From a virus (lineage: Duplodnaviria > Caudoviricetes), in the IMG/VR virus record IMGVR_UViG_3300045015_000053: a stretch of DNA of 64,000 nt. One strand, written 5' to 3'. Shown here piece by piece: positions 15,234 to 44,292 of this stretch. The notes under the pieces are model-generated. The model worked only from the letters and a program-made list of their open reading frames with translations, ran no database searches and was not told where the DNA came from. The position numbers and the translations under genes are program-made. Position 1 is the stretch's first letter; each line of letters starts with the position of its first letter.

Positions 15234-15299
15234 GGCAGGATGTTAGTAGCGGACTACATTACACCAACACCAATGTGTCTCTACGATTTTTTGCCTGCC
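15234..15299 (+). ncRNA. tRNA-associated ATG/TTTTTG RNA module, copy 1
   Basis: GGCAGG-ATG...ACATT...AATGT...TTTTTTG-CCTGCC, 3 nt after a tRNA-like gene. Confidence 0.6.
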
Positions 15300-15307
15300 A
15301 CAACATG

Positions 15308-15630
15308 CCCCTGGTGGGGCGATCTGCCGGAATGGGCGACGGCAGACGTAACGCCAGGGGCTTCTTAAATCCAGAACGGGTCAGCGAAAAAGCACCAACG
15401 GCATGTAAGAGTGCCTACCCGTTCTGGACTCGTCTTCCGCCTTATCAGCGGAAGTGGTGGAGGCGACGGTGTCACCAACATCGCTGCCCTTCGGAGAGTA
15501 AACTCCGAGCGACTCCGGTCGCGAAACAAATCTGGTGGATCGCTGGCTACTGCCGGCCCCCGGAGTACAGTCTTCGGACGGGCTTGACCCGGAAACAAAA
15601 CTGATGTGGAGTTCCTGTAAAAAGGGGCTT
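15308..15630 (+). ncRNA. unidentified multi-hairpin RNA
   Basis: Stems GCCCCTGG/CCAGGGGC, TCCAGAACGGG/CCCGTTCTGGA, TTCCGC/GCGGAA; no credible ORF. Confidence 0.5.
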
Positions 15631-15635
15631 CATAT

Positions 15636-15707
15636 GGGGAGCAGGTGTCAAGGGACACGTCCTGGCTAATCACCGGGAAGAGTGGGGTTCGATTCCCCGG
15701 CTCCCCT
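15636..15707 (+). tRNA. tRNA-Ile(AAT)
   Basis: Acceptor GGGGAGC/GCTCCCC; CCTGG-CT AAT CA-CCGGG; T loop TTCGATT. Confidence 0.65.
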
Positions 15708-15736
15708 CTGGCGATGGGGATATACCCCTCGCCTCT

Positions 15737-15827
15737 CACTCGCAACATTTTTGACCCGGTCGGGGTGCGATCCCCGTGGGTATGCAGTAGCGGGTGTACA
15801 TTCATGAAAAGCGGAGGGACGTAATGT
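15737..15827 (+). ncRNA. tRNA-associated RNA module, permuted copy 2
   Basis: CACTCGC..TTTTTG-ACCC[T-arm-like hairpin]GGGT-ATG..GCGGGTG-TACATT..AATGT. Confidence 0.5.
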
Positions 15828-15920
15828 CCGAACACTACCAGAGGGGACCGCCCCTGAGAATGTACTACCCCTATATGGCACCCATGTCCGCATACCGCAT
15901 CTGATCGCGCGGGCCGGGTG

Positions 15921-15955
15921 ACAAAAACCCCAGTGAAACCCACTGGGGTTTTTGT
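15921..15955. terminator. intrinsic terminator, A- and T-tailed
   Basis: ACAAAAACCCCAGTG/CACTGGGGTTTTTGT. Confidence 0.8.
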
Positions 15956-15974
15956 TTTTCAAGATAGATACAGC

Positions 15975-16769
15975 ATGCACACCGTCTTCGCCGAGTGGCT
16001 GTTCGAGCGGACCACCGATCCCGAACGCCGCGCCAGAATCGACAAGGCTTTCAACACCCTGAAGGCGTTCATGGAAAAGGTCGTCAAAGAAGACACCTTC
16101 TCCGACTACTTCCAGACGGACGGCGACTTCTACTACTTCTTTCCCTGCGTCAAGCACCTGCCCGAAGTCTTCAAAGGGAACATGGAGTTCATCGCTCAGA
16201 AGTTCGACAAGGAAGCTCAACAAGACACGAACCCTCTGATGGGCCAGCAGATCGACTACAGCGGCGGGTTCAACTTCCTCGACCACGATCCGCCGCTGTT
16301 CACCTTCGTCTTCCAGACCGACCGCAAGACGTTCATCCAGAACTTTCCGAAGTATTGTGCCAACTGGTTGTCACAGGTTCGGCAGACCTTCAATCACGAG
16401 TACAACCACTACCTCGACTGGCTCGACTCGGACGGGAAGGCGATCCCCGCCAAGAACATCTGGAACGCCGGCGCGGGCGAGGCCCAACGGAAGAAATACT
16501 TCAACTCGACGCACGAGGTCAACTCGTTCTTCACCGACATGGTGATGGACGACTTCGAGTTCGTGCGGGGCGGGATGTTCTCGAAGATGCCGCCGGCCAA
16601 GAAACTCGCGGTGTTCGAGAAGATGTACGGCCGGGACGCTCGCGAGTACGTCGCCAAGTTCTGGACCCGCAAACAGGGCTTCTCCGAGTTCTCCACGGAA
16701 ACCCGCAAGCGGCTGTCGAAACGACTGTACGCCGCCTACCAGCAACTGAAGGCCGAAATCTCGGCTTGA
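15975..16769 (+). CDS. HExxH protein with capsid-targeting-like N-terminus
   Basis: FNHEYNHY and THEVNSF; MHTVFAEWLFE; TAGATA 4 nt upstream. Confidence 0.75.
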   Translation: MHTVFAEWLFERTTDPERRARIDKAFNTLKAFMEKVVKEDTFSDYFQTDGDFYYFFPCVKHLPEVFKGNMEFIAQKFDKEAQQDTNPLMGQQIDYSGGFNFLDHDPPLFTFVFQTDRKTFIQNFPKYCANWLSQVRQTFNHEYNHYLDWLDSDGKAIPAKNIWNAGAGEAQRKKYFNSTHEVNSFFTDMVMDDFEFVRGGMFSKMPPAKKLAVFEKMYGRDAREYVAKFWTRKQGFSEFSTETRKRLSKRLYAAYQQLKAEISA

Positions 16770-16776
16770 AATGTCG

Positions 16777-16791
16777 CGCAATTTCGGAGAC
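16777..16791 (+). promoter_or_regulatory. conserved intergenic 15-mer CGCAATTTCGGAGAC
   Basis: Identical copies at 18750, 48235 and 52365. Confidence 0.6.
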
Positions 16792-16842
16792 TGTTTTCCC
16801 CGTGCTTGTTGGTAGTGTTCACACTCTACCAATGAGGGAAAC

Positions 16843-17151
16843 ATGCTGCACTACGTCACGCCGGAAATGGGCGACAAGGCTCCCGAAAGCGCCAAGACGT
16901 TCGCCAAACTCGCCCACTACGGCCGGCACTATTTCCTCGATTCCACCCTCGGCCCGGACGTGATCAAGGGCATGGGAGTCGTCTACCGTGGGCAGTACAA
17001 GGAAGACGCCAGCGACGACCCCCTCAAGATGGAACTGCGTTGCGAGAAGGGTTCCAAACTCGCGAACCACTACAGCTACAAGGTGACCATCCGGGCGTTC
17101 GAGAAACTTGGTAAAACCATCGACATCGCAGTGGACTGCCCACTGGATTAA
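16843..17151 (+). CDS. hypothetical protein
   Basis: GAGG RBS, typical codon usage. Confidence 0.7.
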   Translation: MLHYVTPEMGDKAPESAKTFAKLAHYGRHYFLDSTLGPDVIKGMGVVYRGQYKEDASDDPLKMELRCEKGSKLANHYSYKVTIRAFEKLGKTIDIAVDCPLD

Positions 17152-17159
17152 GGAGCAAC

Positions 17160-17573
17160 TTGTCAGAGATCGCTGTAGTTTGTACGCACTGTCAGAATCC
17201 GATGAACGTCCCGAAAACGTTCACCGGCCGGTTCGCCGAGTTCCATTGCAAGAACTGCGGCCGGTCCTTCGGTGTGACCCCGACCGACTCTCAGGTCCGC
17301 ACTCTCAGTCGCGGCGCGGAGTCGATGAGGGGGAAGGTCGCCGAGCAGATGGCTAAGGCCGGGCAAGAGATCCTCGGCCTGCCCGTTCAACTGACCCAGA
17401 TGAAAGAGGTCAAGTGGGCGGTCCAGTGCCGAGTCGAAGCTGTCACCCCCACAGGGGTCGCCATTCCGCTCGGAATTGTTCGATTTTCTGATGCGGGCAA
17501 GGTGTATTCCGAGCAATCCGGGTCTACACTGTCCGAGATCATGGACCGCGTAGACCCCAAATCCCGATGCTAA
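17160..17573 (+). CDS. zinc-ribbon protein
   Basis: CTHC...CKNCG; TTG start after AAGGAG. Confidence 0.7.
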   Translation: MSEIAVVCTHCQNPMNVPKTFTGRFAEFHCKNCGRSFGVTPTDSQVRTLSRGAESMRGKVAEQMAKAGQEILGLPVQLTQMKEVKWAVQCRVEAVTPTGVAIPLGIVRFSDAGKVYSEQSGSTLSEIMDRVDPKSRC

Positions 17574-17582
17574 GGTGCTTCA

Positions 17583-18452
17583 ATGGGACGTGAAGTTCGT
17601 CGTGTGCCGGCCGATTTCAACTGGCCGCTCAAGAAGGTCTGGTCGGGCTTTCAGATGCCCGACGAACTTCACAGTCTCCCTTGCTACCACTGCGGCGGGC
17701 AGGGCGTGAACGCGGCCACCCGCGTTCTGTCCGATAGCTGGTACGATCAGGCCGGTTTCGTGATGGTGGGCTACCAGTTCGCACCGCACGTCACGGACGC
17801 AGAGATCGCCGAGATGGTCAAGAAGGCCGGTGGGCGGTGGACGTACCGTTACGGCCAAGACCGCAACGGGAACGTCGCGGAACGCCCGCCGTGGAAGGTC
17901 ATCGGCGACTATCGCGGCTGGTGTCACGACCTCACCCAAGACGAAGTTCAGCTTCTCTTCGATGAGGGTCGTTTCTACCGGCTCAAAGAAACGGGCGTCT
18001 GCCCCACCGCCGCTGAGATCAACGAGGCGTACCAGCACGGCATGGGCCACGACGCCATCAACATGTGGATCTGCGTCAAGGCCCGCGCACAACGCATGGG
18101 CATCTACGGCCACTGCACCCACTGCAACGGTGAAGGCCGACTCTGGCGGGACGAAGAACACAAGCGGTTGCACGAAGAGTGGCAAGAGACGCCCGTTCCC
18201 GAAGGTCCGGCCTACCAAATCTGGGAGACGGTCAGTGAGGGTTCGCCCGTTTCGCCGGCCTTCTTGAAACCAGAAGACCTCGCGCGGTGGATGGTGCGTA
18301 ACGACGACTCCGTCACCAGCGGCACCAGCTTCGAGGGGTGGGTCAAGTTCATCACGAAGGTCGGGTTCGCGCCGAGTGGTGTGGGCGTCGGCGGCAACAT
18401 CAAGAGCGGCGTCGAGACACTTTCCGAACGTGTCGAAGAGGACGATCAGTGA
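17583..18452 (+). CDS. hypothetical protein with CxxCxGxG zinc-finger motifs
   Basis: CYHCGGQG and CTHCNGEG. Confidence 0.75.
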   Translation: MGREVRRVPADFNWPLKKVWSGFQMPDELHSLPCYHCGGQGVNAATRVLSDSWYDQAGFVMVGYQFAPHVTDAEIAEMVKKAGGRWTYRYGQDRNGNVAERPPWKVIGDYRGWCHDLTQDEVQLLFDEGRFYRLKETGVCPTAAEINEAYQHGMGHDAINMWICVKARAQRMGIYGHCTHCNGEGRLWRDEEHKRLHEEWQETPVPEGPAYQIWETVSEGSPVSPAFLKPEDLARWMVRNDDSVTSGTSFEGWVKFITKVGFAPSGVGVGGNIKSGVETLSERVEEDDQ

Positions 18453-18742
18453 AAATCTCCGTCACGCAGGCCGACATCGATCAGGCCGCGAATTGGCAAG
18501 AAGACTTGCAACGAAACCCGGTCGCGTGGGCGATTCGCCGGACGACCGGCATTCCAACCTCGGCCGGGCCGGGCGCGGCGGTGATCGACTACTGCACGCC
18601 GTGGCAGTCCGAGTGCTGGTTGCCGGACGAGATCATCGACTGGCTCGAAAACTTCAACAACGGCGAGGAGGTCGAGCCGATTGAGTTCGAGATCGATTTC
18701 GATCTGGAGGCTCACGAGACGCGGCGGGCCGGTCGGCGATAA
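18449..18742 (+). CDS. hypothetical protein
   Basis: GTGA coupling; MKISVTQADID. Confidence 0.65.
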   Translation: MKISVTQADIDQAANWQEDLQRNPVAWAIRRTTGIPTSAGPGAAVIDYCTPWQSECWLPDEIIDWLENFNNGEEVEPIEFEIDFDLEAHETRRAGRR

Positions 18743-18749
18743 ACTTCGG

Positions 18750-18764
18750 CGCAATTTCGGAGAC
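18750..18764 (+). promoter_or_regulatory. conserved intergenic 15-mer CGCAATTTCGGAGAC
   Basis: Second of four identical copies. Confidence 0.6.
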
Positions 18765-18819
18765 TCGGTCTGGGCGGTTTCTAAGTGGTGGAGACGGTTT
18801 CGCGAACGGGAGACGGGCC

Positions 18820-19131
18820 ATGACGTTCGGCGACGAAGTGATGGTGATCGAACGGCTGGTGCGGTGTGGTTCGGGAGTCAACTACAACTCCCGAACCATG
18901 TATCCGGCCTTGATCGGTAAAACCGGCGTCGTCAAGTTCTACGACGACGAGGCGTACAACACCGACTACCCGACCGGGTACGAGCGTGTGACTGTGACGG
19001 TCGAGATCGACGGGAAGGAACACGACGTGGACGGCGCACACGTCGTCAAGGTGTGTCAGGTGTGCAAGCACATGGGTTGTCGCGGCGGCGAACATACCTA
19101 CAACCAAACCTGCCTTTGCACTCGGAAGTAA
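18820..19131 (+). CDS. hypothetical protein
   Basis: GGGAG RBS. Confidence 0.65.
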   Translation: MTFGDEVMVIERLVRCGSGVNYNSRTMYPALIGKTGVVKFYDDEAYNTDYPTGYERVTVTVEIDGKEHDVDGAHVVKVCQVCKHMGCRGGEHTYNQTCLCTRK

Positions 19132-19132
19132 C

Positions 19133-19363
19133 ATGAAGATCTTCTCACGCATCACCGTTTACCAGATGCTCGACGGGATGGAGAAGCGGGGTGACATCAA
19201 CGGTCGCCCCTACAACTTCTCGCTGACCGTGACCTTCTACAAGCTGAAGGCCGGGTTCAAGTGGACCCTTGATAGCGGGAACCGGGTACGAAACCTTCGC
19301 GGGCCGTTCGCGACCATCGAAGAGGCTGAAGCTGCGGCGAAAACCCAACTCGAAGCTTTCTGA
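19133..19363 (+). CDS. hypothetical protein
   Basis: Tight operon packing. Confidence 0.65.
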   Translation: MKIFSRITVYQMLDGMEKRGDINGRPYNFSLTVTFYKLKAGFKWTLDSGNRVRNLRGPFATIEEAEAAAKTQLEAF

Positions 19364-19371
19364 GGTGTCCA

Positions 19372-20001
19372 ATGTTTGACGAAGTGACCCAAGAGTTCAT
19401 CGACAGCATGGAGTGGTCGCCGGAAACCCCGGACGACATCAAGAAGCTCGTGATCGGCAACCTCAAGGGGCTGTCGATCATGATGGAGACGCGGCACAAG
19501 CAGCGTCCCAAACTGTACCTGTTCATCGCGCGGAAGGACAGCAGCGAGGATTACTGTCGCGGCCACCGAATGGCGAGCTATAGTTCCGACTTCGAGATGA
19601 AGAACTTCCTCACCCGCGACGAACTGATCAAGTTGTGGGCCGAGTACCTTCAGAAGAACATGAACCTCGACTGCAACGAGTCGGGTTACGCCTTCGCCGT
19701 CTTCCGCGACGGAACCAAACTGTTCGATGACCATGTTACGTTCGACGGCGGCGAGCGGTTCGGCTACAACACCGACGAGTATTACGCCAACTACGAACGG
19801 CTCGAAGTCGAAGAGGCCGACTGCAACGTCGAGATGACCGAGATCTACGCTCTGGTACGCGAAGCGGCCAACAAGCTGCAAGGTGCCAAACTCACGCAGG
19901 AAGAACGCGAGAGGGCCGAGAGAGCTAACGCCGATGCTGCCGCCGCGAAGGAAAACCGCCGGTTGCAGTTCCTCCAACTTCAGAAGGAGTTCGGACAATG
20001 A
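19372..20001 (+). CDS. hypothetical protein
   Basis: GAGGT RBS; C-terminal helical region. Confidence 0.75.
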   Translation: MFDEVTQEFIDSMEWSPETPDDIKKLVIGNLKGLSIMMETRHKQRPKLYLFIARKDSSEDYCRGHRMASYSSDFEMKNFLTRDELIKLWAEYLQKNMNLDCNESGYAFAVFRDGTKLFDDHVTFDGGERFGYNTDEYYANYERLEVEEADCNVEMTEIYALVREAANKLQGAKLTQEERERAERANADAAAAKENRRLQFLQLQKEFGQ

Positions 20002-20441
20002 GTCGCCGTCAAAGTGCCTACGAGATGCCGCCGCCCCCACCGCCCCCGCCTCTGGTGCCGATCAGAGGACGTTTCGACGCCGGTCGCGTGCCGGACTACT
20101 ACGCCGAGCGTGGGTGGTGCGAGGAATGGGCCGGTTGGAACAAGTTGACCGTCTGCACGCAGAAGTACCTGCGTGATCTGCTGCGGCAACTGTGGGAGAA
20201 CAAGAAACATCACGGGGAAAACCCGATTGTTTCGATCCACGTCAAGAACCCGTCCGGCAAGGGCAGTCGGATTCACGAGTGCTGCCGCGTGGACGGCTGG
20301 CAGACCGGGTTCGAGGCGGAATACAACCGCGAGATCGAATACTTCTGTGTGACCGAGACGGCGCTCTGCACGGACGGCAAAGACCACCAGTTCTGGCACA
20401 AGTTCAAAATCGAGGATGTCATCTGGGTGATGGTGACGTGA
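19998..20441 (+). CDS. hypothetical protein
   Basis: ATGA coupling. Confidence 0.7.
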   Translation: MSRRQSAYEMPPPPPPPPLVPIRGRFDAGRVPDYYAERGWCEEWAGWNKLTVCTQKYLRDLLRQLWENKKHHGENPIVSIHVKNPSGKGSRIHECCRVDGWQTGFEAEYNREIEYFCVTETALCTDGKDHQFWHKFKIEDVIWVMVT

Positions 20442-20443
20442 AT

Positions 20444-20474
20444 GAGAAGGCCGGGCAAAGCGCCCGGCCTTCTC
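20444..20474. terminator. bidirectional terminator
   Basis: GAGAAGGCCGGGC/GCCCGGCCTTCTC between convergent genes. Confidence 0.75.
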
Positions 20475-20477
20475 TCT

Positions 20478-20774
20478 TTACTGCGATCTCGCACAGTCGG
20501 GACAGATCACGAGTTCCTTCACGATCTGTTTCCCGACCCCTCCGTTGTCGATGCACTCCATGTGATCGAACTTGCCGCGTTTGAATACGGGCTTGTACCG
20601 GGCGGGGTGGACTACTTCTTGGTAAAACGTGACCTTGTGCTGCTTCACCCTCGGTTGGGTGACGTTCCTGCAATTGGAGCAGACGTACATTGTCTCGGCC
20701 GTTTTTGGATTGCCTTCTCGACAGGCCGAAGCCGGAAGGGTAAAGTGAGGTACACCGTATTGTGGGAGTTTCAA
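20478..20774 (-). CDS. small zinc-binding hypothetical protein
   Basis: CSNC and CPDC. Confidence 0.55.
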   Translation of the reverse strand: MKLPQYGVPHFTLPASACREGNPKTAETMYVCSNCRNVTQPRVKQHKVTFYQEVVHPARYKPVFKRGKFDHMECIDNGGVGKQIVKELVICPDCARSQ

Positions 20775-21008
20775 ATGGAAGATATGAGCAAACTCGAAAA
20801 ATTGCTGGACGTACCGATTGTCTTCGGGCTACAAGCTCAGGGACACATCCCCACGATCCAGAAGATGCTCGCGGCCGGCGCGACGTGGAAGGAGATCGGA
20901 AACAAGATCGGCTGGTGCCAAAACACCGCCAAAGAACACTACGAACGCTACCTTCAAAGGGAGAACGGCAATGCAAAGGGAAAGACACCCGCTGCCGATG
21001 GAGTCTGA
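20775..21008 (+). CDS. small HTH-like protein
   Basis: GATWKEIGNKIGW resembles an HTH. Confidence 0.5.
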   Translation: MEDMSKLEKLLDVPIVFGLQAQGHIPTIQKMLAAGATWKEIGNKIGWCQNTAKEHYERYLQRENGNAKGKTPAADGV

Positions 21009-21279
21009 CGAGATGGCCGAAGCCCTCCGGGTTTCGCATTGCGACCGCAAGAGGCAGAACCACAAGTGTCAGGGCGTCGTCACCATCGCCCCCGGCCAAC
21101 TGCGGCTCGACTGCAAACTGTGCGGCGAGGATCGGCACACGCTGGACGAGACGATGGTTCTGGTGCGAGAGGCCAGAGAGATCTGTGACATCGTCGGCGT
21201 GAACTACGACGCACTGGACGCTCAGAAGAGACGTGAATTGTTGTTGGCGGTACTGGATCTGGCTCAGAACGGCCTGTGA
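20998..21279 (+). CDS. hypothetical protein
   Basis: Cys-containing ORF overlapping the previous gene. Confidence 0.6.
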   Translation: MESDEMAEALRVSHCDRKRQNHKCQGVVTIAPGQLRLDCKLCGEDRHTLDETMVLVREAREICDIVGVNYDALDAQKRRELLLAVLDLAQNGL

Positions 21280-27699: not shown

Positions 27700-27832
27700 G
27701 TTGTGGTAGCTCAGTAGTAGAGCAGCGGACATGGCGAAAGCCTGTTGTCTCGCAATTTTTGCCCGCAAGGGATGCCTGATGGGATTACATTTTAATCCGC
27801 CGGTCGCAGGGTGCGAATCCTTGCCCACAACA
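27700..27832 (+). tRNA. tRNA-Lys(TTT) interrupted by a 59-nt insert (RNA module copy 3)
   Basis: GCGGA-C[27731-27789]TTTTAA-TCCGC; removing 59 nt restores a 7-nt loop. Confidence 0.75.
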
Positions 27833-29417: not shown

Positions 29418-29544
29418 CTCCGATTTTGAAGGCTCTGGTTCCCCTTGTGGGTGGTAAAAAGATCGCGCATAATCATCACGTTGCTGCGATTGGGCTGTAG
29501 AAATCGAAACCCCCAATGTCTGCGTAGCAGACAGGGAGTAAGTG

Positions 29545-30720
<1,176 letters not shown>

Positions 30721-32204: not shown

Positions 32205-32332
32205 GCCGGGTTAGCTCAGTGGCAGAGCGCGTAAAAGTTGACTCACCACATTTTGCCCGCAAGGGATGACTCGATGGGTTTACATTCCATTCCCAGGACG
32301 AGGTCGCGAAGTTCGATTCTTCGCTCCCGGCT
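32205..32332 (+). tRNA. tRNA-like RNA with RNA module (copy 4) in anticodon arm
   Basis: Acceptor GCCGGG/CCCGGC, normal D and T arms; insert GACTC..TTTTG-CCC-GCAA-GGG-ATG..GGGTTTACAT. Confidence 0.65.
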
Positions 32333-32870: not shown

Positions 32871-32997
32871 TGTGGGGTAGCTCAGTGGTAGGGCGCGTAA
32901 AACTAGATTCGCGCCTTTTTGCCCTAACGGGATGTCCTTGCGGATTTACATTACATGTGAGGACGAGGATGTAAGGTTCGATTCCTTACCCCCACAG
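32871..32997 (+). tRNA. tRNA-like RNA with RNA module (copy 5) in anticodon arm
   Basis: Acceptor TGTGGGG/CCCCACA; GATTCGC..TTTTTG-CCC-TAAC-GGG-ATG..GCGGATT-TACAT-TAC-ATGT-GA. Confidence 0.65.
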
Positions 32998-34315: not shown

Positions 34316-34906
34316 ATGATGAATTTCATGCTGTGGATCGAAGGTGTAGAAAATCGCGGGCCTCAAGGCACACCCAAAAGGGGTCGCGGGCCGCGAGAAG
34401 ACATTTACGAAGTGATGGAAGCCGGGATGCACCACGGCGTCATCGTCGGTCCCATGTGGGAATATGTCGCGAGACTCCACGGCGGCGCGGCGATGAACCA
34501 ACCGTCCGAAGCCGAGCGGGTGAAAAAACTCGCCGGCCAGATTTCCGGTTTCGGCGGATACTGGGAGCGGCCGATTGTTGACGAAGAAAACGTCGTCATG
34601 GAAGGCCAGCACCGGCTCGAAGCCGCAAGGCACTTGGGATACAAGAAGATCCCGATCATGCGAGTCATGGACCTCGGCCGCGTCTTCGGTTACGAACAAA
34701 TGGCTGCGGCGGCAAAAGCCGTGAAGCCGATGGGTGGCGATGCCCTTCAGCAGATTGTCGGTCGCGCCCTCGACACCTTGTACGAAGAGAAGGGCAACGT
34801 CGAAGAGGCTTTGCAGTACACTGTCGGTCGCGGGTACGATGACGCCTTCCACGCCGCGATCAATGCGGCGAAAAGGGCAAAGCTGCCGAACTACATAAAA
34901 GCATGA
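34316..34906 (+). CDS. ParB/Srx-like domain protein with capsid-targeting-like N-terminus
   Basis: RPIVDEENVVMEGQHRLEAARHLGYKKIPI; TAAATA 5 nt upstream. Confidence 0.75.
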   Translation: MMNFMLWIEGVENRGPQGTPKRGRGPREDIYEVMEAGMHHGVIVGPMWEYVARLHGGAAMNQPSEAERVKKLAGQISGFGGYWERPIVDEENVVMEGQHRLEAARHLGYKKIPIMRVMDLGRVFGYEQMAAAAKAVKPMGGDALQQIVGRALDTLYEEKGNVEEALQYTVGRGYDDAFHAAINAAKRAKLPNYIKA

Positions 34907-36255
34907 ACGGCTTTCAAAACTGGTTCGAGTCACAAACGGCAGACCTCGAAGACAAGATCTTCGCGGCCATCAGCGACGACAAAGCTTCCGACTTTGACGC
35001 GATGCTCAAGGAATGGGTCAAAAGCACCAACCCGTCGATGTCCGGCGTGGTCCTGAAACGGGACCACTACGGCAAGAATCGCGGCGAGGGCGTGACCTAC
35101 TTCAGCGGCCAACTGACGCCCTCTTACCGAGAGGTGTCGGCTCACCGCAAGAGCGAGAGCGGGTTTTCTGGGATGGGCCTGATCGTCACGCCCCTGACCT
35201 ACCGCTACCTCCGCTCGCACACGTTGGAGCATTTCGACGGCATCGGGATCGACAACGGGATGTTCACGGAAGCCGGACAGAAGAATTTTTCGTGGACCAA
35301 GTACGAGAAGATGATCAAGGTGGCCCTCGCCCAAGAGAAGCGAGAGGTACTCGGCCAACTGCACTTCTTCACGGTGCCGGATCAGCCGTTCGACTGGGCG
35401 GCGACGATGAAGAAGTTCAAGGAACACGCTTCCGACGTGAAGCGACTTCGGAGTTGGGGAGCGCCGGTTGCCATCTGTATTCAGAACGGGGCGGTCGTCG
35501 CCAACGTGCCGTGGGGCGAGATCGACGTGATCTTCATCGGCGGCAACGACGAGTACAAGACCGGGCCGGACGCACAGGCGATCACGGCCGAGGCCAAGAA
35601 GCTCGGCAAGGGCGTTCACATGGGACGTGTGAACAACCTGAAAAGAATGAACAAAGGGTCGGAATGGGGCGTGGATACCGCTGACGGGACATACGTCATG
35701 CACGAGCTTGCGAAGGCTCTCCACGAGATTGAGACAAAGAACCCGATCCGGCCGCGAGAGGGGATCGTCCAGTACCACGAAAGACTGAGGCGGTTGCTGC
35801 ACGGTACGCACGCGGAAAAAGACTTGCACGTTCCGGGCAGCAAACACCTGACGGAGCCAGAGATCATCGACAATCTTGTTTCGCACATTCTGGACATCCA
35901 GACTAAGAACAACATGGGTGCGAGGTACAACGCGATTGCCGACATGGTCGCCCACATGAAGGGCAAGCCGTTGAGCCGGGACGCGGTTCGAGAGTCGGAC
36001 AGATTCTTGCCGCAGGTTCCACACATCTCGCCCGACGACGATGTGGTACAATATGACGACGCGGGGAACGTGAAGCTCGGACGCGACGGCCGACCACTCA
36101 AGAACTACAAAGTCTTCAGTCAGTTGGCGGATCGCCCGGAGTACCGACCGATGCCGAAGGGCATCCCGTTCGACCCGAAAGACATGAGCGTGTACAACAA
36201 GTACATCAACAAATACATCATGAGGATGCGAGACGCGGGCGTACTGCCCCACTGA
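34903..36255 (+). CDS. TGT/DpdA-like TIM-barrel protein (putative) with capsid-targeting-like N-terminus
   Basis: IDNGMF, VPD, QNG, IFIGG, VHMGRVN, DTADGT; family assignment from recall only. Confidence 0.55.
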   Translation: MNGFQNWFESQTADLEDKIFAAISDDKASDFDAMLKEWVKSTNPSMSGVVLKRDHYGKNRGEGVTYFSGQLTPSYREVSAHRKSESGFSGMGLIVTPLTYRYLRSHTLEHFDGIGIDNGMFTEAGQKNFSWTKYEKMIKVALAQEKREVLGQLHFFTVPDQPFDWAATMKKFKEHASDVKRLRSWGAPVAICIQNGAVVANVPWGEIDVIFIGGNDEYKTGPDAQAITAEAKKLGKGVHMGRVNNLKRMNKGSEWGVDTADGTYVMHELAKALHEIETKNPIRPREGIVQYHERLRRLLHGTHAEKDLHVPGSKHLTEPEIIDNLVSHILDIQTKNNMGARYNAIADMVAHMKGKPLSRDAVRESDRFLPQVPHISPDDDVVQYDDAGNVKLGRDGRPLKNYKVFSQLADRPEYRPMPKGIPFDPKDMSVYNKYINKYIMRMRDAGVLPH

Positions 36256-38425: not shown

Positions 38426-38810
38426 GCAGATCGAGAATCTGATTCTCGACATCCTTGTTCTGGTTCTTGAGGATCATCAGGATCTCTTTCTCGATCCTGA
38501 TGTCCTTCTTGATGAGGCGGCGGATACCGTGCAGGGTTCTCCGGTGGGCGGCTTCGGCCTTCTTCTCGGCGCGACCTTGCGACATCAGGATGAAGGGGGC
38601 TTGAAAGGCGGCAACCATGCTGAGAAGCAGGTTGAGTAGAATGAAGGGGTAGGGATCGAATTGAAGGTTCTTGGTGGCGAGCAGGTTCCAAGAAGCCCAA
38701 GCGGACATTACGCAGAGGGCCGAGATGATGAACCACCATGAGCCGCCGAAGCTGGCGATGTGGTCTGCGATGCGTTCGCTCCGGGTCCGGTCGTCGTGTG
38801 GCGGATTCAT
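38412..38810 (-). CDS. DUF1003 family membrane protein
   Basis: ADHIASFGGSWWFI, FDPYPFILLNLLLS, AAFQAPFILMSQ. Confidence 0.9.
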   Translation of the reverse strand: MNPPHDDRTRSERIADHIASFGGSWWFIISALCVMSAWASWNLLATKNLQFDPYPFILLNLLLSMVAAFQAPFILMSQGRAEKKAEAAHRRTLHGIRRLIKKDIRIEKEILMILKNQNKDVENQILDLLKKS

Positions 38811-38848
38811 CGTTGCCTCCCGTAGTAGTTGTTTGCAAGTATCTAGAA

Positions 38849-38923
38849 GGCCGATTGATCGTAGTAGTGGTAACTCGCTTGTTTTACACGCAAGAGTCGG
38901 GGGTTCGATTCCCTCATCGGCCA
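38849..38923 (+). tRNA. tRNA-Val(TAC)
   Basis: CTTGT-TT TAC AC-GCAAG. Confidence 0.8.
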
Positions 38924-38935
38924 CTGTTAGTTGAT

Positions 38936-39006
38936 AGATCCGTGTAGGTGGTCCTACAGCGAAACTCCAAATCTCGCCAAACCGGGTTCGATTCCTGGCG
39001 GATCTG
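38936..39006 (+). tRNA. tRNA-Trp(CCA), atypical D arm
   Basis: Loop CT CCA AA; acceptor AGATCCG/CGGATCT. Confidence 0.7.
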
Positions 39007-39503
39007 CTTCAAATTCTTCGATTAGTTTGGAGTCTTCATGACTAAGATAAGTCATGAAGACTAAACATTGCAAACGATGTTCGTTGGACTTGCCAACGTC
39101 ATCATTCTCGAAGAACTGCCGTAAATCTGATGGCCTTCAAATCAGTTGTAAAAGCTGTATGAAGGCAATGAACGCCAAACACTATGTCCAGTACAAAGAC
39201 AAGCAGTTGGCGATCAACCGAGAAAACAAACGCATCATCCGCGAAAAGGTTCGATTTCTGAAAGAGGCGAACCCTTGCGGTTGTGGCGAGTCTGCTGTGT
39301 GCTGTTTGGACTTCCACCATATCGGGAAGAAGTCTGACACGATTTCAAGGATGTTGTCCAACACATACAGTTGGGAGCGACTGGAAGCTGAACTCAGGAA
39401 ATGTTGTGTGTTGTGCGCCAACTGCCATCGCAAGCATCATGCGGGCGAAAAATTGAAGTTCAAATGCGTTCCGATTTTGTTGTGATTCCTGGCGGATCTG
39501 CTT
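38990..39503 (+). mobile_element. HNH cassette bounded by a 20-bp direct repeat of the tRNA-Trp 3' end
   Basis: GATTCCTGGCGGATCTGCTT at 38990-39009 and 39484-39503. Confidence 0.75.
39054..39485 (+). CDS. HNH endonuclease, tRNA-associated family
   Basis: CKRC...CKSC; CLDFHH...KCCVLCANCHRKHH. Confidence 0.9.
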   Translation: MKTKHCKRCSLDLPTSSFSKNCRKSDGLQISCKSCMKAMNAKHYVQYKDKQLAINRENKRIIREKVRFLKEANPCGCGESAVCCLDFHHIGKKSDTISRMLSNTYSWERLEAELRKCCVLCANCHRKHHAGEKLKFKCVPILL

Positions 39504-39504
39504 G

Positions 39505-40221
39505 ATGATCAATCCCAACAACCCGTACACCAACATGCAAAAAAGGGTGTACGGCTCGCAGTCGCCGTGGTGGTCGGTTCATCGACGCGATCCCGTTGTC
39601 GGGACGTTCGACGCCCACAACAAACACTCCGACTACGAGTTGTTGTTCAAAGGAATCGACACCAAAGAACTGGTCGCACTCGACTTCGGATGTGGTCCGG
39701 GTCGAAACATCGTGAAGTACGCCGGCCGCTTCCGTCGTATCGACGGCGTGGATCTCGACTACGCCAACCTGCTCAACGCGAAGAGTTGGGCCGATCACAA
39801 CGGGTTGAACGGGTTCAAACTGTACCTGTGCAACGGTGTGGATCTCGGCGGCATCGGAAATGACGAGTACGATCTGGTGATGACGACGATCACCCTTCAA
39901 CACATCTGCGTACACGAGATACGCCAGAACTACTTCCGAGAGTTCTGTCGGGTGCTGAAGCCGGGCGGTCGGTTGTCGTTCCAAATGGGGTTCGGGTCGC
40001 CGTCGCCGAACGCGGTGAGCTATTACGCGAACCACTACGAGGCGACCGCGACGAACAGGGGTTGCGACACCGAGGTGTCCGACCCGGATCATCTAAAAGA
40101 AGATCTGGGCAAGGCCGGTTTCGATGGGTTCGAGTACGATCTGCGGCCACCGGGTCCGGGTGACTATCACCCCCAGTGGATCTTCGTGCGGGCGAGAAGT
40201 CGCGCTCAGGAGGATAGATAG
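39505..40221 (+). CDS. class I SAM-dependent methyltransferase
   Basis: ALDFGCGPGRN, GVDL, YDLVMTTITLQHI, RVLKPGG. Confidence 0.9.
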   Translation: MINPNNPYTNMQKRVYGSQSPWWSVHRRDPVVGTFDAHNKHSDYELLFKGIDTKELVALDFGCGPGRNIVKYAGRFRRIDGVDLDYANLLNAKSWADHNGLNGFKLYLCNGVDLGGIGNDEYDLVMTTITLQHICVHEIRQNYFREFCRVLKPGGRLSFQMGFGSPSPNAVSYYANHYEATATNRGCDTEVSDPDHLKEDLGKAGFDGFEYDLRPPGPGDYHPQWIFVRARSRAQEDR

Positions 40222-40572
40222 GTGTGAACGATTCACGCCGAGCTAAGGAGGCTCATGAGCGAAAAGGACTTCAAAAACAAGCGTGCGCGTAAGGCACTGC
40301 GGGATTTGTGAGAGGTACAGTGAGCGGCTGTCGTTGTTCGAGGCCGAGTTGATGGTGTTGGCGATCAGGGCGGGCAGCATGGTGGCGGCTCTGAAAGAAA
40401 TTGGGATTGCAAAAAGCAGGATAAAGGGCATACTGAGAGCGGCCAGGGAACTGGACGAAAAACTCAGAGACATGTGAACCTTCGGATGGACGGCAGCGTC
40501 CATCCAGTACAGAGATCCGGCGAGAAGCAACAGGATGAAGGGCGTGACGCTCGCTTGTGATTATGAGTTAAC

Positions 40573-40643
40573 GGGGTCGTGGTGAAGTGGTATCATGCGA
40601 CAATGGCATTGTTGAGGTAGGGGTTCGATTCCCCTCGGCTCCA
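40573..40643 (+). tRNA. tRNA-Ala(GGC)
   Basis: G3:U70 pair; CGACA-AT GGC AT-TGTTG. Confidence 0.85.
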
Positions 40644-40654
40644 CTAAAGGTGTG

Positions 40655-40894
40655 ATGATGACGGACGAAGAACTTTGGGACGCTCTCGACGGCTTGTTCG
40701 CCTATGACATGGGCTGTCGCTCGTCGGGCATCAAAGATGATAAGCTTCGAGATCGCGTCAAGGCTGAATTGGAGAAAGACAAGCTGAGACTGTCGCGCAT
40801 CGTCAGAGATCGAATGCTGACGGAAAACCGACTGGCTCAAGGATACGGTCTGGAAGACGTAAAAGAGTTCATTGATTGGTCAGACCGCCTGTAG
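40655..40894 (+). CDS. hypothetical protein
   Basis: AAAGGT RBS. Confidence 0.65.
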   Translation: MMTDEELWDALDGLFAYDMGCRSSGIKDDKLRDRVKAELEKDKLRLSRIVRDRMLTENRLAQGYGLEDVKEFIDWSDRL

Positions 40895-40904
40895 GAAGAA
40901 AGTC

Positions 40905-41270
40905 ATGAGCGTCAGAAGTCGCGCGGCGAACAAGGCAAAGGCTACGAAGCTCGGCATCTCGCTCCAAAAGATCGAGAAGCTCCACCTACCCTACAGCGGG
41001 TGCGGTGACGCGGCCGAGTGGCACAGTCTTCTGGGCGAGTTCCTCGCGACCTACAAGGACGCGAAGCCACGGGTCGAAATCGATGTTGACGGGTACGATG
41101 GGTATCCAGACAACGTGGTGGTTTCGGCCGTCGTGGACAAGACCGATCAGGAACTGATCAACGAGATCAAGTCGAAGGAAGACCTGATCGCCGCTCAGAA
41201 GAAGAAGATCGAAGACAAGGAACGGGCTGAACTCGAACGGCTTGAGGCCAAGTACAGGAAGAAGTCATGA
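40905..41270 (+). CDS. hypothetical protein
   Basis: AGGAAG RBS; C-terminal coiled coil. Confidence 0.7.
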   Translation: MSVRSRAANKAKATKLGISLQKIEKLHLPYSGCGDAAEWHSLLGEFLATYKDAKPRVEIDVDGYDGYPDNVVVSAVVDKTDQELINEIKSKEDLIAAQKKKIEDKERAELERLEAKYRKKS

Positions 41271-41500
41271 TCACCGACGACGACCGCGCCTACGTCGCAA
41301 AGAAGATCGGCGAGTGGGTTGCCACCCTAGAAGCCGAGGGTTTGGCCGACAAGCCGATCATGTCTTGTGCGTGCGGGCAGTGTCCGAATGGGGTCGTCAC
41401 GCCGCGCAGCGTTCTCAGGGACATTGAGAACCGGACGGAAGAGGGCGAGCGGTTCGTTGAGAGTTGGGTGGACTTGAACGTCCGAGGTATTCTGAAATGA
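41267..41500 (+). CDS. hypothetical protein
   Basis: ATGA coupling. Confidence 0.65.
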   Translation: MITDDDRAYVAKKIGEWVATLEAEGLADKPIMSCACGQCPNGVVTPRSVLRDIENRTEEGERFVESWVDLNVRGILK

Positions 41501-41709
41501 CGCCTCCTTTCCCGAATTTCATCGCCGTGGTGCTTGGTCTGTCGATGGCGTCCTGTTTTTTCTTGGGTGGCAACATCCGAAAGTGGATGTTGGGGCATAA
41601 ATTGGATGTGTGGGAAAAGGCCGGGATGCTGTTGCACCCGGTGGTGATTGTGGCGGGTGTCGTGAACGTGTTCTTGGCACTTGGGAATAAGGGGTCACTA
41701 GCGGACTAG
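41497..41709 (+). CDS. small membrane protein
   Basis: Two hydrophobic segments; stop lies inside tRNA-Ala(CGC). Confidence 0.55.
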   Translation: MTPPFPNFIAVVLGLSMASCFFLGGNIRKWMLGHKLDVWEKAGMLLHPVVIVAGVVNVFLALGNKGSLAD

Positions 41710-41758
41710 CTCTGTCGTTCGCAACGACGGATTCGGGGTTCGACTCCCCGTGGCTCCA
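41691..41758 (+). tRNA. tRNA-Ala(CGC), shortened D arm
   Basis: G3:U70; loop TT CGC AA; 68 nt. Confidence 0.75.
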
Positions 41759-41814
41759 CTGCACGCTTCTTGCTGAAATGCGGATAAATCGACGTGCGTT
41801 AAAAATATCGGCCT

Positions 41815-41885
41815 GGGGTGTTGGTATAGTGGTATTACGTCTGCTTTGCAAGCAGAAGACCGGGGTCCGATTCCCCGACGCTCCA
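41815..41885 (+). tRNA. tRNA-Ala(TGC)
   Basis: TCTGC-TT TGC AA-GCAGA; G3:U70. Confidence 0.85.
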
Positions 41886-41887
41886 CT

Positions 41888-41947
41888 GCGAAGATGACAG
41901 TTGGGATTACATCGCCAATGTGAAATCTCAGCGACTTTTTGCTTCGC
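41888..41947 (+). ncRNA. tRNA-associated RNA module, copy 6
   Basis: GCGAAG-ATG..GGGATT-ACAT..ATGT-GA-AATCTC..TTTTTG-CTTCGC between two tRNAs. Confidence 0.65.
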
Positions 41948-41951
41948 GATT

Positions 41952-42022
41952 GCCTTCATAGTTTAGTGGCAGAACACGATCTTGGTAAGATTGAAACCTG
42001 AGTTCGATTCTCAGTGAAGGCT
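41952..42022 (+). tRNA. tRNA-Thr(GGT)
   Basis: CGATC-TT GGT AA-GATTG. Confidence 0.9.
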
Positions 42023-42035
42023 CTTGGAGACACCG

Positions 42036-42350
42036 ATGTCATCCGAAGAAGATGAGGTTGAAGGTGGTCCGTGTCACACGGTGACGGCGGAAGACATGAT
42101 CGAGATACGCCGGCGCATGTGCGGCGGTGATGTCCTCAAGCTAGTCAACCACTACTTGATTTCATACGGCACGCCGTACTCGGCAGAATTGGTTGTGAAC
42201 GACACCAGTCTCGTCTGCGTGACGAAGGACGTGTCGGAAGGCCAAAGCACCGAGTGCTACAACGCCGAAGAGTTGTTGAAGTCACTGGAACGCTGTTCTT
42301 CGACGGAAGACGTGCGAGTGGTTTTGGAAGAAAGCGGTCTGGCTCTGTGA
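42036..42350 (+). CDS. hypothetical protein
   Basis: GGAG RBS. Confidence 0.6.
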   Translation: MSSEEDEVEGGPCHTVTAEDMIEIRRRMCGGDVLKLVNHYLISYGTPYSAELVVNDTSLVCVTKDVSEGQSTECYNAEELLKSLERCSSTEDVRVVLEESGLAL

Positions 42351-42360
42351 ATGGGGGAAC

Positions 42361-42717
42361 TTGAGGACGTTTAACGAGTGGGTTCTGCTGCAAGAAGATA
42401 CGATCTGGGAGAAGCACGGTCGCGATCTCCCGTCCATCTTTAAGTCAACCCATTATGCTCTGCCGACCTATCAACAACTGGAAGAGTTCAGCGACTATCC
42501 CGAACTGACGGCAGAAGAGATCGTTCAAGGTTTCGGGTATACGATTGTGGGTCGTGGCGTGAGCAGTCCCGACAACTGCAAGAAGATCGTTGAGTCGATT
42601 CGGTTGTTGGTGGAGCGATACCCCGACCGGCTGGAATACAAAGAGGCGTTGACTAAGGCCGAAGAAGAGGCCAAGATCAAACTCGAAAAGTGGCGCAGGG
42701 GGGTACGTTTCCCGTAA
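42361..42717 (+). CDS. hypothetical protein with capsid-targeting-like N-terminus
   Basis: TTG start; MRTFNEWVLLQE. Confidence 0.7.
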   Translation: MRTFNEWVLLQEDTIWEKHGRDLPSIFKSTHYALPTYQQLEEFSDYPELTAEEIVQGFGYTIVGRGVSSPDNCKKIVESIRLLVERYPDRLEYKEALTKAEEEAKIKLEKWRRGVRFP

Positions 42718-42730
42718 TGGAGGGATTGTC

Positions 42731-43162
42731 ATGACGCTTCCGACCGGCAAGAACAAGACGAAGCTCGTCCGCGAGGGTGAGGAAAAACGGCTCGCACAAG
42801 AAAGTGAGCAGAAGCGGCAAGAGACGGAAAAGGCTGCGGCCGAGCAGCGAAAGAAGGATGACGAGTTCTCCAAGCTCGTCACGAGCTTGAAGGAACGGAT
42901 CGAAGCAACCGTTTACCGCGCGATCAACGCCGGTCATCGGGAAACCGAGATCATCATCCCGAAGGACTACGCCGAGCCTCGATACCTCGAAGCGTGGACG
43001 AAGGCGGTGGTCGGGCTGCGGCGCAGTTACGGCAAAGAATACAAGTTCGATTTGCACGAACACCGCCTATACTGTGACAACAGGTTCGAGGCCGCGAACG
43101 TGGACGGCGTCAGCTACCAAGAGTGGACCGAAGACGCTCACAGGTTGAAGGTCACTTGGTGA
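42731..43162 (+). CDS. hypothetical protein
   Basis: GGAGG RBS. Confidence 0.7.
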   Translation: MTLPTGKNKTKLVREGEEKRLAQESEQKRQETEKAAAEQRKKDDEFSKLVTSLKERIEATVYRAINAGHRETEIIIPKDYAEPRYLEAWTKAVVGLRRSYGKEYKFDLHEHRLYCDNRFEAANVDGVSYQEWTEDAHRLKVTW

Positions 43163-43204
43163 TTTTGCGGTGAAGTTTGAAAACGGGTCTATAATGACCT
43201 TGAT

Positions 43205-43278
43205 GGTGTGCGTGGTGTAGTGGCTTTGCACGTTTCCCTGTGAAGGAAAAGGTGGCGGATCGTAACCGCTCGCACACC
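43205..43278 (+). tRNA. tRNA-His(GTG)
   Basis: G-1:C73 8-bp acceptor; TTTCC-CT GTG AA-GGAAA; atypical T loop ATCGTAA. Confidence 0.8.
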
Positions 43279-43345
43279 CTAGTCGAGATGACAGACAGGA
43301 GTACATTCACTACTCGTTCTCTTGTCAACTTATTGCTCGGCTTAT

Positions 43346-43413
43346 GCCCCGCCCTGCGGTCAGGTTCGGAGTCTACGAAACTCTGAAGTTCCGTTCGACT
43401 CGGAAGCGGGGTA
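43346..43413 (+). tRNA. tRNA-Arg(ACG), compact
   Basis: GGAGT-CT ACG AA-ACTCT; acceptor GCCCCGC/GCGGGGT. Confidence 0.7.
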
Positions 43414-43416
43414 CTT

Positions 43417-43487
43417 GCCCGGTCCAGCGGTTTACCGGCACTGAGCTTGCGAAGCTCGGTTGCGTGGTTCGACTCCACGACAGGGTA
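43417..43487 (+). tRNA. tRNA-Arg(GCG)
   Basis: TGAGC-TT GCG AA-GCTCG. Confidence 0.7.
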
Positions 43488-43491
43488 CTCG

Positions 43492-43553
43492 GTGAGATGA
43501 ACGTAGGGATTACATTGGTTATGTGAAATCTCTACAACCTTTTTGCTCATCAC
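43492..43553 (+). ncRNA. tRNA-associated RNA module, copy 7
   Basis: GTGAG-ATG..GTAGGGATT-ACAT..ATGT-GA-AATCTCTAC..TTTTTG-CTCAT. Confidence 0.65.
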
Positions 43554-43574
43554 ATTTTCTTCCGAAAGGCGCGA

Positions 43575-43853
43575 ATGGCGACGAGTGGCGACCCTGAGAT
43601 CTGGTTGTTGCAACGCATTGATGAGTTGCAGGACAAACCTAATTGGCCCGCGACCCACAAGAACATCTGGCAGGGCAGTTATGATGTGTGGTTCTCGGAA
43701 CAAGATCGGATCGACGCCTACGAGATTCCAAAAAGACGGATGGCGAGCGCTGTCAAGCAGGATCTCATTCAGAGTAGCATCAAGGAAGTCGGGAAGTACA
43801 AGTTCGAGGTCTGGAGTTTGACCGAGAAGGGCAAGCAGTTGATTGGCAAGTGA
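43575..43853 (+). CDS. hypothetical protein
   Basis: 92-aa ORF. Confidence 0.65.
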   Translation: MATSGDPEIWLLQRIDELQDKPNWPATHKNIWQGSYDVWFSEQDRIDAYEIPKRRMASAVKQDLIQSSIKEVGKYKFEVWSLTEKGKQLIGK

Positions 43854-43866
43854 TGTGGGCAATAAC

Positions 43867-44058
43867 ATGAGCAAGACGATTTTGCCGTGGCCGATGATTT
43901 TGGGGCTAACCGCCGGAATCATGGTCGGAAATTGTTGCTTGAAATTGCTTGAAGACTGGCCTCGCGACAAAGGGTTGTTGTTCGGTTTGGTTTGCGGCCT
44001 CGTGAACGTTGTTTTGTGCGGTTCGTTCCGTGTAATTGAATGGATGGTTCGGCGTTAA
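43867..44058 (+). CDS. small membrane protein
   Basis: Two hydrophobic segments. Confidence 0.55.
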   Translation: MSKTILPWPMILGLTAGIMVGNCCLKLLEDWPRDKGLLFGLVCGLVNVVLCGSFRVIEWMVRR

Positions 44059-44132
44059 CGGCCCATAGTGTAGTGGTTTCTGCACGAGAGTCTGATAAAC
44101 TCTAAGTCGAAGTTCGATTCTTCGTGGGCCGA
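44059..44132 (+). tRNA. tRNA-Ile(GAT)
   Basis: AGAGT-CT GAT AA-ACTCT. Confidence 0.9.
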
Positions 44133-44141
44133 CTGATTGAT

Positions 44142-44211
44142 GGTGTACGACTCCGGTGAGTAGTTGTGGTTGTGAACTATGACAAGGTGGGTTCGACCCC
44201 CATCGTACACC
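44142..44211 (+). tRNA. tRNA-His(GTG), short D arm
   Basis: GGTGTACG/CGTACACC; loop TT GTG AA. Confidence 0.75.
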
Positions 44212-44214
44212 CTT

Positions 44215-44292
44215 GCGAGATGACCTTGTTGGGGATTACATTCCTTTTCAGAATGTGCCGAAAGGCACAATCTCCGACGTTCTTTTGCTCGC
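44215..44292 (+). ncRNA. tRNA-associated RNA module, copy 8
   Basis: GCGAG-ATG..GGGATT-ACATT..AATGT[GTGCCGAAAGGCAC]AATCTC..T-run-G-CTCGC. Confidence 0.65.

Follow-up and report, generated by a model that had tools for sequence, protein, structure and literature searches.

The stretch of DNA analysed here (the window) comprises 64,000 nucleotides, bases 41,123-105,122 of the 188,369-bp IMG/VR virus record IMGVR_UViG_3300045015_000053 (Duplodnaviria; Caudoviricetes), for which the completeness estimate is about 37%. It carries a tRNA array, where ARAGORN finds 44 tRNA genes (50 over the whole record), on the plus strand throughout, and in or beside these genes lie the copies of a small RNA module whose resemblance to the Ro60-binding stem of bacterial Y RNAs is the subject of this analysis. 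A Ro60 gene is present in the same genome, about 28 kb past the end of the window: an open reading frame of 597 amino acids (genome 132,725-134,518) matches PF25045 (vWA_Ro60, 6.5e-14) and PF05731 (TROVE, 1.3e-7). Ro60 homologues of this protein number in the thousands, and the same Ro60 protein is present on a separate 475,914-bp contig, which makes the phage a megaphage. The sequencing runs containing the phage are of lake water origin; the DNA runs carry an identical phage and therefore offer no natural variants in the modules, and the joints listed in them belong to the tRNAs and EF-Tu of other organisms.

The module consists of a basal helix P1, an AUG followed by 2-6 nt, a second helix P2 of 6-10 bp, UACAU with a variable cap (the P3 hairpin), the returning strand P2', a spacer of 1-5 nt, a U-run with a final G, and P1'. 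Ten copies were counted, five of them open hairpins and five closed at P1, and four of the closed ones sit in the anticodon arm of a cloverleaf. The eight copies listed in a preliminary description of this DNA are all real and lie on the plus strand at the places it gave, but its list was incomplete, and 43282-43341 and genome 122,501-122,624 are added here. The copies are given below under the Y RNA names suggested by the comparisons that follow.

15234..15299, plus strand: open hairpin Y RNA, YrlB-like, with P1 GGCAGG/CCUGCC, AUG, a UACAU hairpin and UUUUUUG; P2 has a C bulge and the G.U pair; starts 2 nt past tRNA-Ser(GGA) (15136-15231)
15737..15827, plus strand: closed variant with a T-arm-like cap, matched by covariance model R1 (see below) at 24.7 bits, E 0.007, from outside the training set; the order is P2', UUUUUG, P1' ACCC, cap CGGGG-UGCGAUC-CCCG, P1 GGGU, AUG, P2, UACAU hairpin; a 5' hairpin (15710-15733) and tRNA-Ile(AAU) (15636-15708) lie upstream
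27700..27832, plus strand: tRNA-order Y RNA, complete cloverleaf, Lys-UUU-like, with a deviant T loop UGCGAAU; a 59-nt insert (27731-27789) lies between tRNA positions 32 and 33, and the Ro60-type module (27747-27790) has P1 CCC-GCAA-GGG plus an additional GGCGAAAGCC hairpin
32205..32332, plus strand: tRNA-order Y RNA, cloverleaf shell; the module (32240-32285), with P1 CCC-GCAA-GGG, is inserted between positions 28 and 29, on the anticodon stem's 5' strand
32871..32997, plus strand: tRNA-order Y RNA, cloverleaf shell with U1-A72 and G73; the module occupies 32905-32952, a triloop closes P3, and excision restores no canonical anticodon arm
41888..41947, plus strand: open hairpin Y RNA, filling the spacer between tRNA-Ala(UGC) (end 41886) and tRNA-Thr(GGU) (start 41952), 1 nt past the former and 4 nt ahead of the latter
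43282..43341, plus strand: degenerate open hairpin Y RNA, in which UUAUUG replaces the U-run and UACAU is without an AUGU partner; fills the spacer between tRNA-His (end 43279) and tRNA-Arg (start 43344), 2 nt from each
43491..43551, plus strand: open hairpin Y RNA, starting 2 nt past a non-canonical tRNA-like element at about 43416-43489
44215..44292, plus strand: open hairpin Y RNA with an additional GCCGAAAGGC hairpin between P3 and P2'; 3 nt past the tRNA-like element 44142-44211 and 6 nt ahead of tRNA-Ile(GAU) (start 44299)
genome 122,501-122,624, outside the window: tRNA-embedded copy, with the module at 122,534-122,577

All five open copies thus start 1-3 nt past the 3' end of a tRNA or tRNA-like element, and three of the five also end 2-6 nt before the next tRNA. 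The preliminary description had placed four open copies directly after tRNAs; the position holds, but two of these four neighbours (43416-43489 and 44142-44211) are non-canonical tRNA-like elements, with a T arm and odd acceptor and D regions, both missed by ARAGORN. The only Rfam match to them is a weak tRNA-Sec one (28 bits), to the second.

The AUG, the UACAU, the closing UUG and a G.U wobble in P2, three pairs before UACAU, are each present in every one of the ten copies. The U-run ranges from UUUUG to UUUUUUG in eight, and is UUAUUG in one and CUAUUG in another. The frame first described is therefore the one shared by the copies, except that P2 is 3 bp longer than was stated and that the invariant wobble had been overlooked; likewise ATG and ACAT (as UACAU) are indeed invariant, but TTTTTG is not, only its UUG being constant. 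A structural descriptor made of P1, ATG, P2 and a T-run with G, without the requirement for GGGATTACAT, gave 7 matches on the plus strand against 0.26 per strand in shuffled sequences, which excludes chance. In regards to covariation, which is strong and supports both P1 and P2, we aligned nine closed copies, five of this genome and four of relatives, and found that 97.9% of the cells pair, with compensatory changes in 9 of 11 pairs, although the alignment was fitted to the model and so somewhat favours the structure; none of 500 shuffles reached the observed values and controls slid along the sequence paired at 28-59%. The stems, as had been claimed, vary and yet keep pairing. P1 of the closed copies covaries (CCC/GGG, UCC/GGA, GGC/GCC), and the U.G pair is invariant across all nine. 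The open copies gave poor MAFFT alignments and were parsed by hand, and only the closed frame was modelled (R1); minimum free energy folds of the five open copies reproduced P1 and P2, with the P3 hairpin in some form in four and clear in two. Since the module is a helix, an internal loop and a helix, capping it at either end yields what appear as circular permutations. The permutation noticed earlier is real.

Among cultured or GenBank phages, Myxococcus phage Mx1 has the closest Ro60 (41% identity, 96% of the length aligned, E 4e-134), and its gene also adjoins a tRNA array. When UACAU was added to the descriptor, exactly two elements were found in the Mx1 locus, L137:8255-8383 and about 8606-8712, both with a P1 ending in GA, followed by AUGC, P2 and UACAU, then by several hairpins, one of them a T-arm, and lastly by P2', UUUUG and P1'. 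The hairpins that they enclose resemble T and D arms, and each element lies directly 3' of a tRNA or tRNA-like gene, the first being flanked by one on its 3' side too. The first element matches Rfam YrlA over its full length, weakly, at 32 bits (E 3.9e-5). The Rfam YrlA consensus reads cggCga AUGCu uggGgaa CUAc, then the T arm, a closed acceptor-like hairpin, UA and the D arm, then guA uG uucCcca aAaAcUuG ucGccg, which is the architecture given in the preliminary description: the AUG of the module forms the last part of the GNCGAA(U)G motif, its (U)UAC is the counterpart of CUAc, and the close of its U-run that of UuG. The motif GNCGAAN0-1G is the proposed Rsr site in bacterial Y RNAs (PMC4201824).

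We extended the comparison to 80 bacterial loci of rsr, the bacterial Ro60 gene, with 3 kb of flank on each side, and with a descriptor of P1 of at least 5 bp, ATG, P2 of at least 6 bp, [UA]ACA[UC], UG and P1'. It returned 163 elements on the strand of rsr and none on the opposite strand; UACAU is present in 155 of them and the G.U wobble, in the same register as in the window copies, in 131. Short hairpins of at most 70 nt account for 35 and longer elements for 128, with at least one element in 68 of the 80 loci and a maximum of six per locus. Two of the elements exceed the Rfam YrlA gathering score, L198:4832-4967 (76.7 bits) and L222:5245-5358 (69.4 bits), and both start with ...CGA AUGC ... 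GGAAC/GGAAG UACAUG. The stems can be near-identical to those of the phage, as in GUUGGGAC-UACAUC of locus L221 versus GUUGGGAUU-ACAUC of window copy 41888. The module is homologous to these Y RNAs, and very probably it is the Ro60 (Rsr)-binding stem of Y RNAs of the YrlA/YrlB type. It is accordingly neither unnamed nor without a known match, as the preliminary description had it; a protein-binding module, one of the possibilities then offered, is right in kind, but the stem is a known one.

Tandem arrays of 3-6 Y RNAs stand beside rsr at L198:4605-4967 and in loci L158, L160, L162, L168, L174, L182, L191 and L212. They mix short hairpins with tRNA-like forms, and most are under the Rfam YrlA/YrlB thresholds, which indicates that the Rfam models miss much of the Y RNA family. 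In Mx1 the second element (OR576727.2, record position about 45,520-45,626) has P1 CAGUGA, AUGC, P2 GAAGAC, UACAUC, the T-arm GCGG-UUCGAUU-CCGC and UUUUG, and is overlain by a coding sequence for a 'hypothetical protein' (locus 8610-8732, WNM70101.1), which is probably a mis-annotation; the first has no annotation in the record.

The four embedded copies are a circular permutation of YrlA, with a full cloverleaf and the Ro60-type module in its anticodon arm. After P2 and UACAU the chain runs through the 3' strand of the anticodon stem, the T arm and the 3' acceptor strand, where it ends; from the 5' acceptor strand it runs on through U8-A9, the D arm and the 5' strand of the anticodon stem to P2'. 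This is the order of YrlA with the ends moved to the acceptor stem, and the embedded RNAs are in this sense YrlA in tRNA order. A complete tRNA-like domain, T and D arms included, is present in these four copies; in one copy it is reduced to a T-arm-like cap, and the five hairpins lack it, which makes them YrlB-like. The covariance model R1 was built from four of the closed copies of this genome only; it recovers the fifth, 15737, and closed copies in four related megaphages, which were identified by their Ro60. In L152, whose Ro60 is 76% identical, the copy (L152:73-119) lies 9.9 kb upstream of rsr. In the three others, whose Ro60 proteins are 50-53% identical to that of the phage, the copies lie 80-860 nt downstream of rsr: L154:12725-12772 at 0.86 kb, and L155:11800-11846 and L156:11793-11839 at about 80 nt each. 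All of them are inside a cloverleaf that has both a D and a T arm. Of the 80 bacterial loci one only has a true closed copy in tRNA order, L216:2028-2149, of a SAR324 metagenome-assembled genome (JANQHV010000087.1), about 100 nt downstream of rsr; its cloverleaf is full, the Ro60 module is in the anticodon arm, and the Rfam tRNA model takes the whole for a tRNA carrying a large insertion. The other R1 matches in bacterial loci, with 'caps' of 13-30 nt, combine the 3' strand of one Y RNA and its successor's 5' strand and were discarded. A plain hairpin Y RNA (about 1937-1994) stands ahead of the tRNA-order copy in L216. The unusual T loop UGCGA(A)UC, in which U55 is replaced by G, is seen in three places, the 27700-27832 shell, the 15737 cap (15752-15776) and L152:136-152, and its recurrence suggests that these have an origin or a partner in common.

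YrlA (RF02553; Chen et al. 2014, PMC4201824) and the RNAs described here share the basal stem, whose 5' strand has P1, AUG(C), P2 and (C)UAC and whose 3' strand has UUG-P1', as well as a Ro60 gene in the same genome, and the embedded copies share with it the T arm, acceptor stem, U8-A9, D arm and the stem to the Ro60 site, each next to the same neighbours. They differ in that YrlA ends at P1 and its acceptor is a closed hairpin, whereas here the acceptor stem holds the chain ends and a tetraloop caps P1; before AUG, P1 has GAG or GGG as its last letters instead of CGA, and the 3' strand has a run of U4-6 in place of cUuG. YrlA has been described as resembling a circularly permuted tRNA (bioRxiv 10.1101/312249), and some YrlAs, according to a published speculation, might be processed to resemble tRNAs. 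One published Y RNA does have an open acceptor end in its tRNA-like domain, but it consists of two base-paired pieces since its P1 is also open, whereas the RNAs found here are a single chain in tRNA order. A literature search of incomplete coverage returned no description of a Y RNA gene encoded in tRNA order. The open copies, for their part, resemble the hairpin Y RNAs of S. Typhimurium and M. smegmatis (YrlB, RF02565) and D. radiodurans (Yrn2), short RNAs with hardly anything besides the Ro60-binding stem and a small capping loop, and like them share their genome with a tRNA-like Y RNA; YrlA is known to be accompanied by such hairpins (PMC4201824; bioRxiv 10.1101/312249). YrlB and Yrn2 are in tandem next to rsr, while the phage hairpins are scattered through the tRNA array and abut tRNAs.

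Several observations weigh against the assignment to Y RNAs. No window copy matched an Rfam family at the gathering threshold or at E<=10, short slices included, and none reached the gathering scores of RF02553 (69 bits) and RF02565 (97 bits); YrlB gave no match to them, and at gathering level Rfam finds only tRNAs in the window. For the closed copies this is expected, since a covariance model cannot follow a circular permutation. An Rfam match was thus obtained indirectly, the window copies matching nothing and the homologous elements of Mx1 and bacteria matching YrlA at 32, 76.7 and 69.4 bits. The published motif is kept in part: its terminal (A)UG is found in ten of ten copies, but P1 ends in GAG, AAG or GGG before AUG and not in CGA. 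CGA itself occurs in three of the five open copies (GCGAAG, GCGAG, GUCGAG), with an extra purine before AUG, while the closed copies have GGG (four) or GGGU (one) and the Mx1 and bacterial elements have the exact CGAAUGC. The copies are also not adjacent to rsr, the nearest lying 10.1 kb upstream on the same strand and those of the window 47-76 kb away, compared with about 2-3 kb, likewise on the same strand, in a published survey of rsr-adjacent Y RNA genes. Furthermore, no RNA run is among the sequencing runs that contain the phage.

The remaining point of this kind concerns the embedded copies, three of which yield, on excision in silico, 74-nt tRNAs recognised by ARAGORN as tRNA-Lys(UUU), tRNA-Gly(UCC) and tRNA-Ile(AAU). 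They could then be tRNA introns, removed by a protein enzyme or by the RNA itself, with the exons ligated, perhaps by the RNA ligase encoded at 52430-53389, to give three working tRNAs, and even then the module, once removed, might function as a Y RNA. In the Lys case the canonical loop C32-U33-UUU-A37-A38 is restored, the discriminators A, U and A fit the Lys, Gly and Ile identities by general identity rules, and the ligase gene is nearby. However, two of the three restored loops, the Gly-like and the Ile-like, carry C at position 37, which in tRNAs is almost invariably a purine, no tRNA can be restored from the fourth copy (32871-32997), and five copies lie outside tRNAs altogether. Identity between the Gly-like and the Ile-like shell is 80%, and identity of either to the canonical tRNAs of the phage, Gly and Ile included, is at most 69% (background); being closer to each other than to these they are better seen as paralogous shells than as interrupted Gly and Ile genes. 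Nor is the loop conserved in relatives: its remnants differ between the L155 and L156 orthologues (AUCUC versus AACCA), where excision gives non-canonical loops, and the L152 relative of 27700-27832, if cut at the corresponding place, would be left with a loop of 6 nt. U55 is missing from the T loop (UGCGAAU) of 27700-27832. The inserts, of only 50-59 nt, match no intron family, which speaks against group I and bulge-helix-bulge introns, and no splicing endonuclease (PF01974), RtcB or Hfq was found in the 188-kb fragment, an absence that is weak evidence in about 37% of a genome. The intron explanation, including the self-excising form proposed in the preliminary description, is in our view quite improbable; we read the embedded copies as tRNA-like shells, and the Lys-like gene 27700-27832 keeps a small chance of being spliced.

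Two further explanations were considered. A new class of self-cleaving ribozyme, processing tRNA 3' ends in the manner of the HDV-like (hepatitis delta virus-like) theta ribozymes and excising itself from tRNAs, was suggested by the position of the copies directly past tRNA 3' ends and by the circular permutations, which recall some ribozyme classes, an analogy drawn by the preliminary description alone. Theta ribozymes do, from general knowledge, share this site after phage tRNA genes, but the module is without their nested double pseudoknot and is a protein-binding stem, not a catalytic fold. Its core is a simple helix, internal loop and helix with neither junction nor pseudoknot; no Rfam match to a ribozyme family (hammerhead, twister, HDV/theta, hatchet, pistol, hairpin) overlapped a copy at E<=10. 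The ends of the chain are located at P1 or at P2/P3 depending on the copy, which leaves no common cleavage site, and 163 times beside bacterial rsr the same module forms the closing stem of known Ro60-bound RNAs. We find a ribozyme scarcely credible, and the claim of a new class falls since the module is known. The many copies in one array and the three insertion points within tRNA-like genes could also be the mark of selfish repeated DNA, for instance a homing target or a miniature mobile element, that inserts in or beside tRNA genes and has no RNA function of its own. That the helix sequences vary and still pair, the G.U included, points to selection at the RNA level instead; every copy is on the strand from which the tRNA array is transcribed, neither terminal repeats nor duplications of a target were observed, and the module is conserved beside rsr across phyla. 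Such an element is thus very improbable.

If the module is a Ro60-binding stem, the phage Ro60 would be expected, by homology with characterised Y RNAs, to bind the conserved core, that is, the end of P1, the AUG, the short linker and P2 with the G.U pair three pairs before UACAU, with UUG closing the other strand, and the variable distal part would decide to which partner the Ro60 particle is tethered. The five minimal hairpins would be cut out by the tRNA-processing enzymes RNase Z and RNase P, as the abutment of the open copies on tRNA ends leads us to infer. In the four embedded RNAs the cloverleaf is complete, its acceptor ends are free and the tetraloop-closed module protrudes from its anticodon arm, and in 15737 the T-arm-like hairpin caps P1. 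In Deinococcus and Salmonella a Y RNA tethers Rsr to PNPase and gates the PNPase cavity (PMC4201824), the Ro60 of a Thermus phage binds phage Y RNA-like RNAs and the host PNPase (PMC12135203), and the YrlA of M. smegmatis is cleaved by RNase P and gains CCA (PMC4201824; bioRxiv 10.1101/312249). The tRNA-order Y RNAs might be matured like tRNAs (RNase P, RNase Z, CCA) and perhaps charged or bound by the EF-Tu that the phage encodes in this array, tethering Ro60 to the tRNA-handling or translation machinery and not to PNPase, or the insert of 27700-27832 might be excised to give a tRNA-Lys and a free Y RNA; these are tentative proposals, which we consider rather unlikely.

The module itself is already known, as of the YrlA/YrlB type, and what is new is the tRNA-order permutation, the size of the family and its placement: at least ten Y RNA genes across the tRNA array of a single giant phage, where characterised bacteria have two or more, with the closed form recurring in the megaphages and in one bacterial genome as described above. 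The tRNA-order genes offer natural, testable substrates for the question, raised in published work, of whether some YrlAs are processed into tRNA-like molecules, and they are a plausible intermediate between tRNA and YrlA. A tRNA-like maturation, or excision of the Lys insert, would if true be a direct link between tRNA and Y RNA and would bear on the origin of YrlA from tRNA. The extended signature (AUG, G.U wobble, UACAU, UUG) detects Y RNAs that Rfam misses, and it flags probable mis-annotations such as the hypothetical coding sequence over the Y RNA of Mx1.

Some simpler searches gave little. In exact-pattern scans of IMG/VR, GATG-N-GGGATTACAT gave chance matches only, GGGATTACAT...ATGT...AATCTC gave 13 matches, all by chance, and the closed-form pattern gave none; searches for related IMG/VR loci, seeded with the open reading frame 34903-36255 or with Ro60, found no relatives. 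Among other structures considered for the module, a kink-turn or C/D box was dropped because GA pairs are lacking, an Sm/Hfq site because the U-run is lineage-specific and bacteria have cUUG, and an AUG-CAU pseudoknot as sterically implausible across P2; a bulge-helix-bulge intron was dropped as well.

The Mx1 tRNA array also holds a full-length Rfam tmRNA (L137:9732-10109, 117.7 bits) that is not in the feature table, and a short coding sequence annotated as 'Hef-like endonuclease' (10005-10130) overlaps its end. In the window itself, four protein genes were noted. A full-length EF-Tu gene (GTP_EFTU, D2 and D3 domains) lies inside the tRNA array at 29542-30720, 1.5-2 kb from embedded Y RNAs on both sides, and lake metagenome contigs of many other organisms stack on it. 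The RNA ligase mentioned above (PF09414) is located among tRNA genes and could matter for tRNA repair or splicing. A HAD hydrolase at 50004-51341 is a possible fusion with a nucleotidyltransferase-like part (the Pfam matches are weak and sub-threshold), and an amidoligase-family protein is encoded at 7575-8558.

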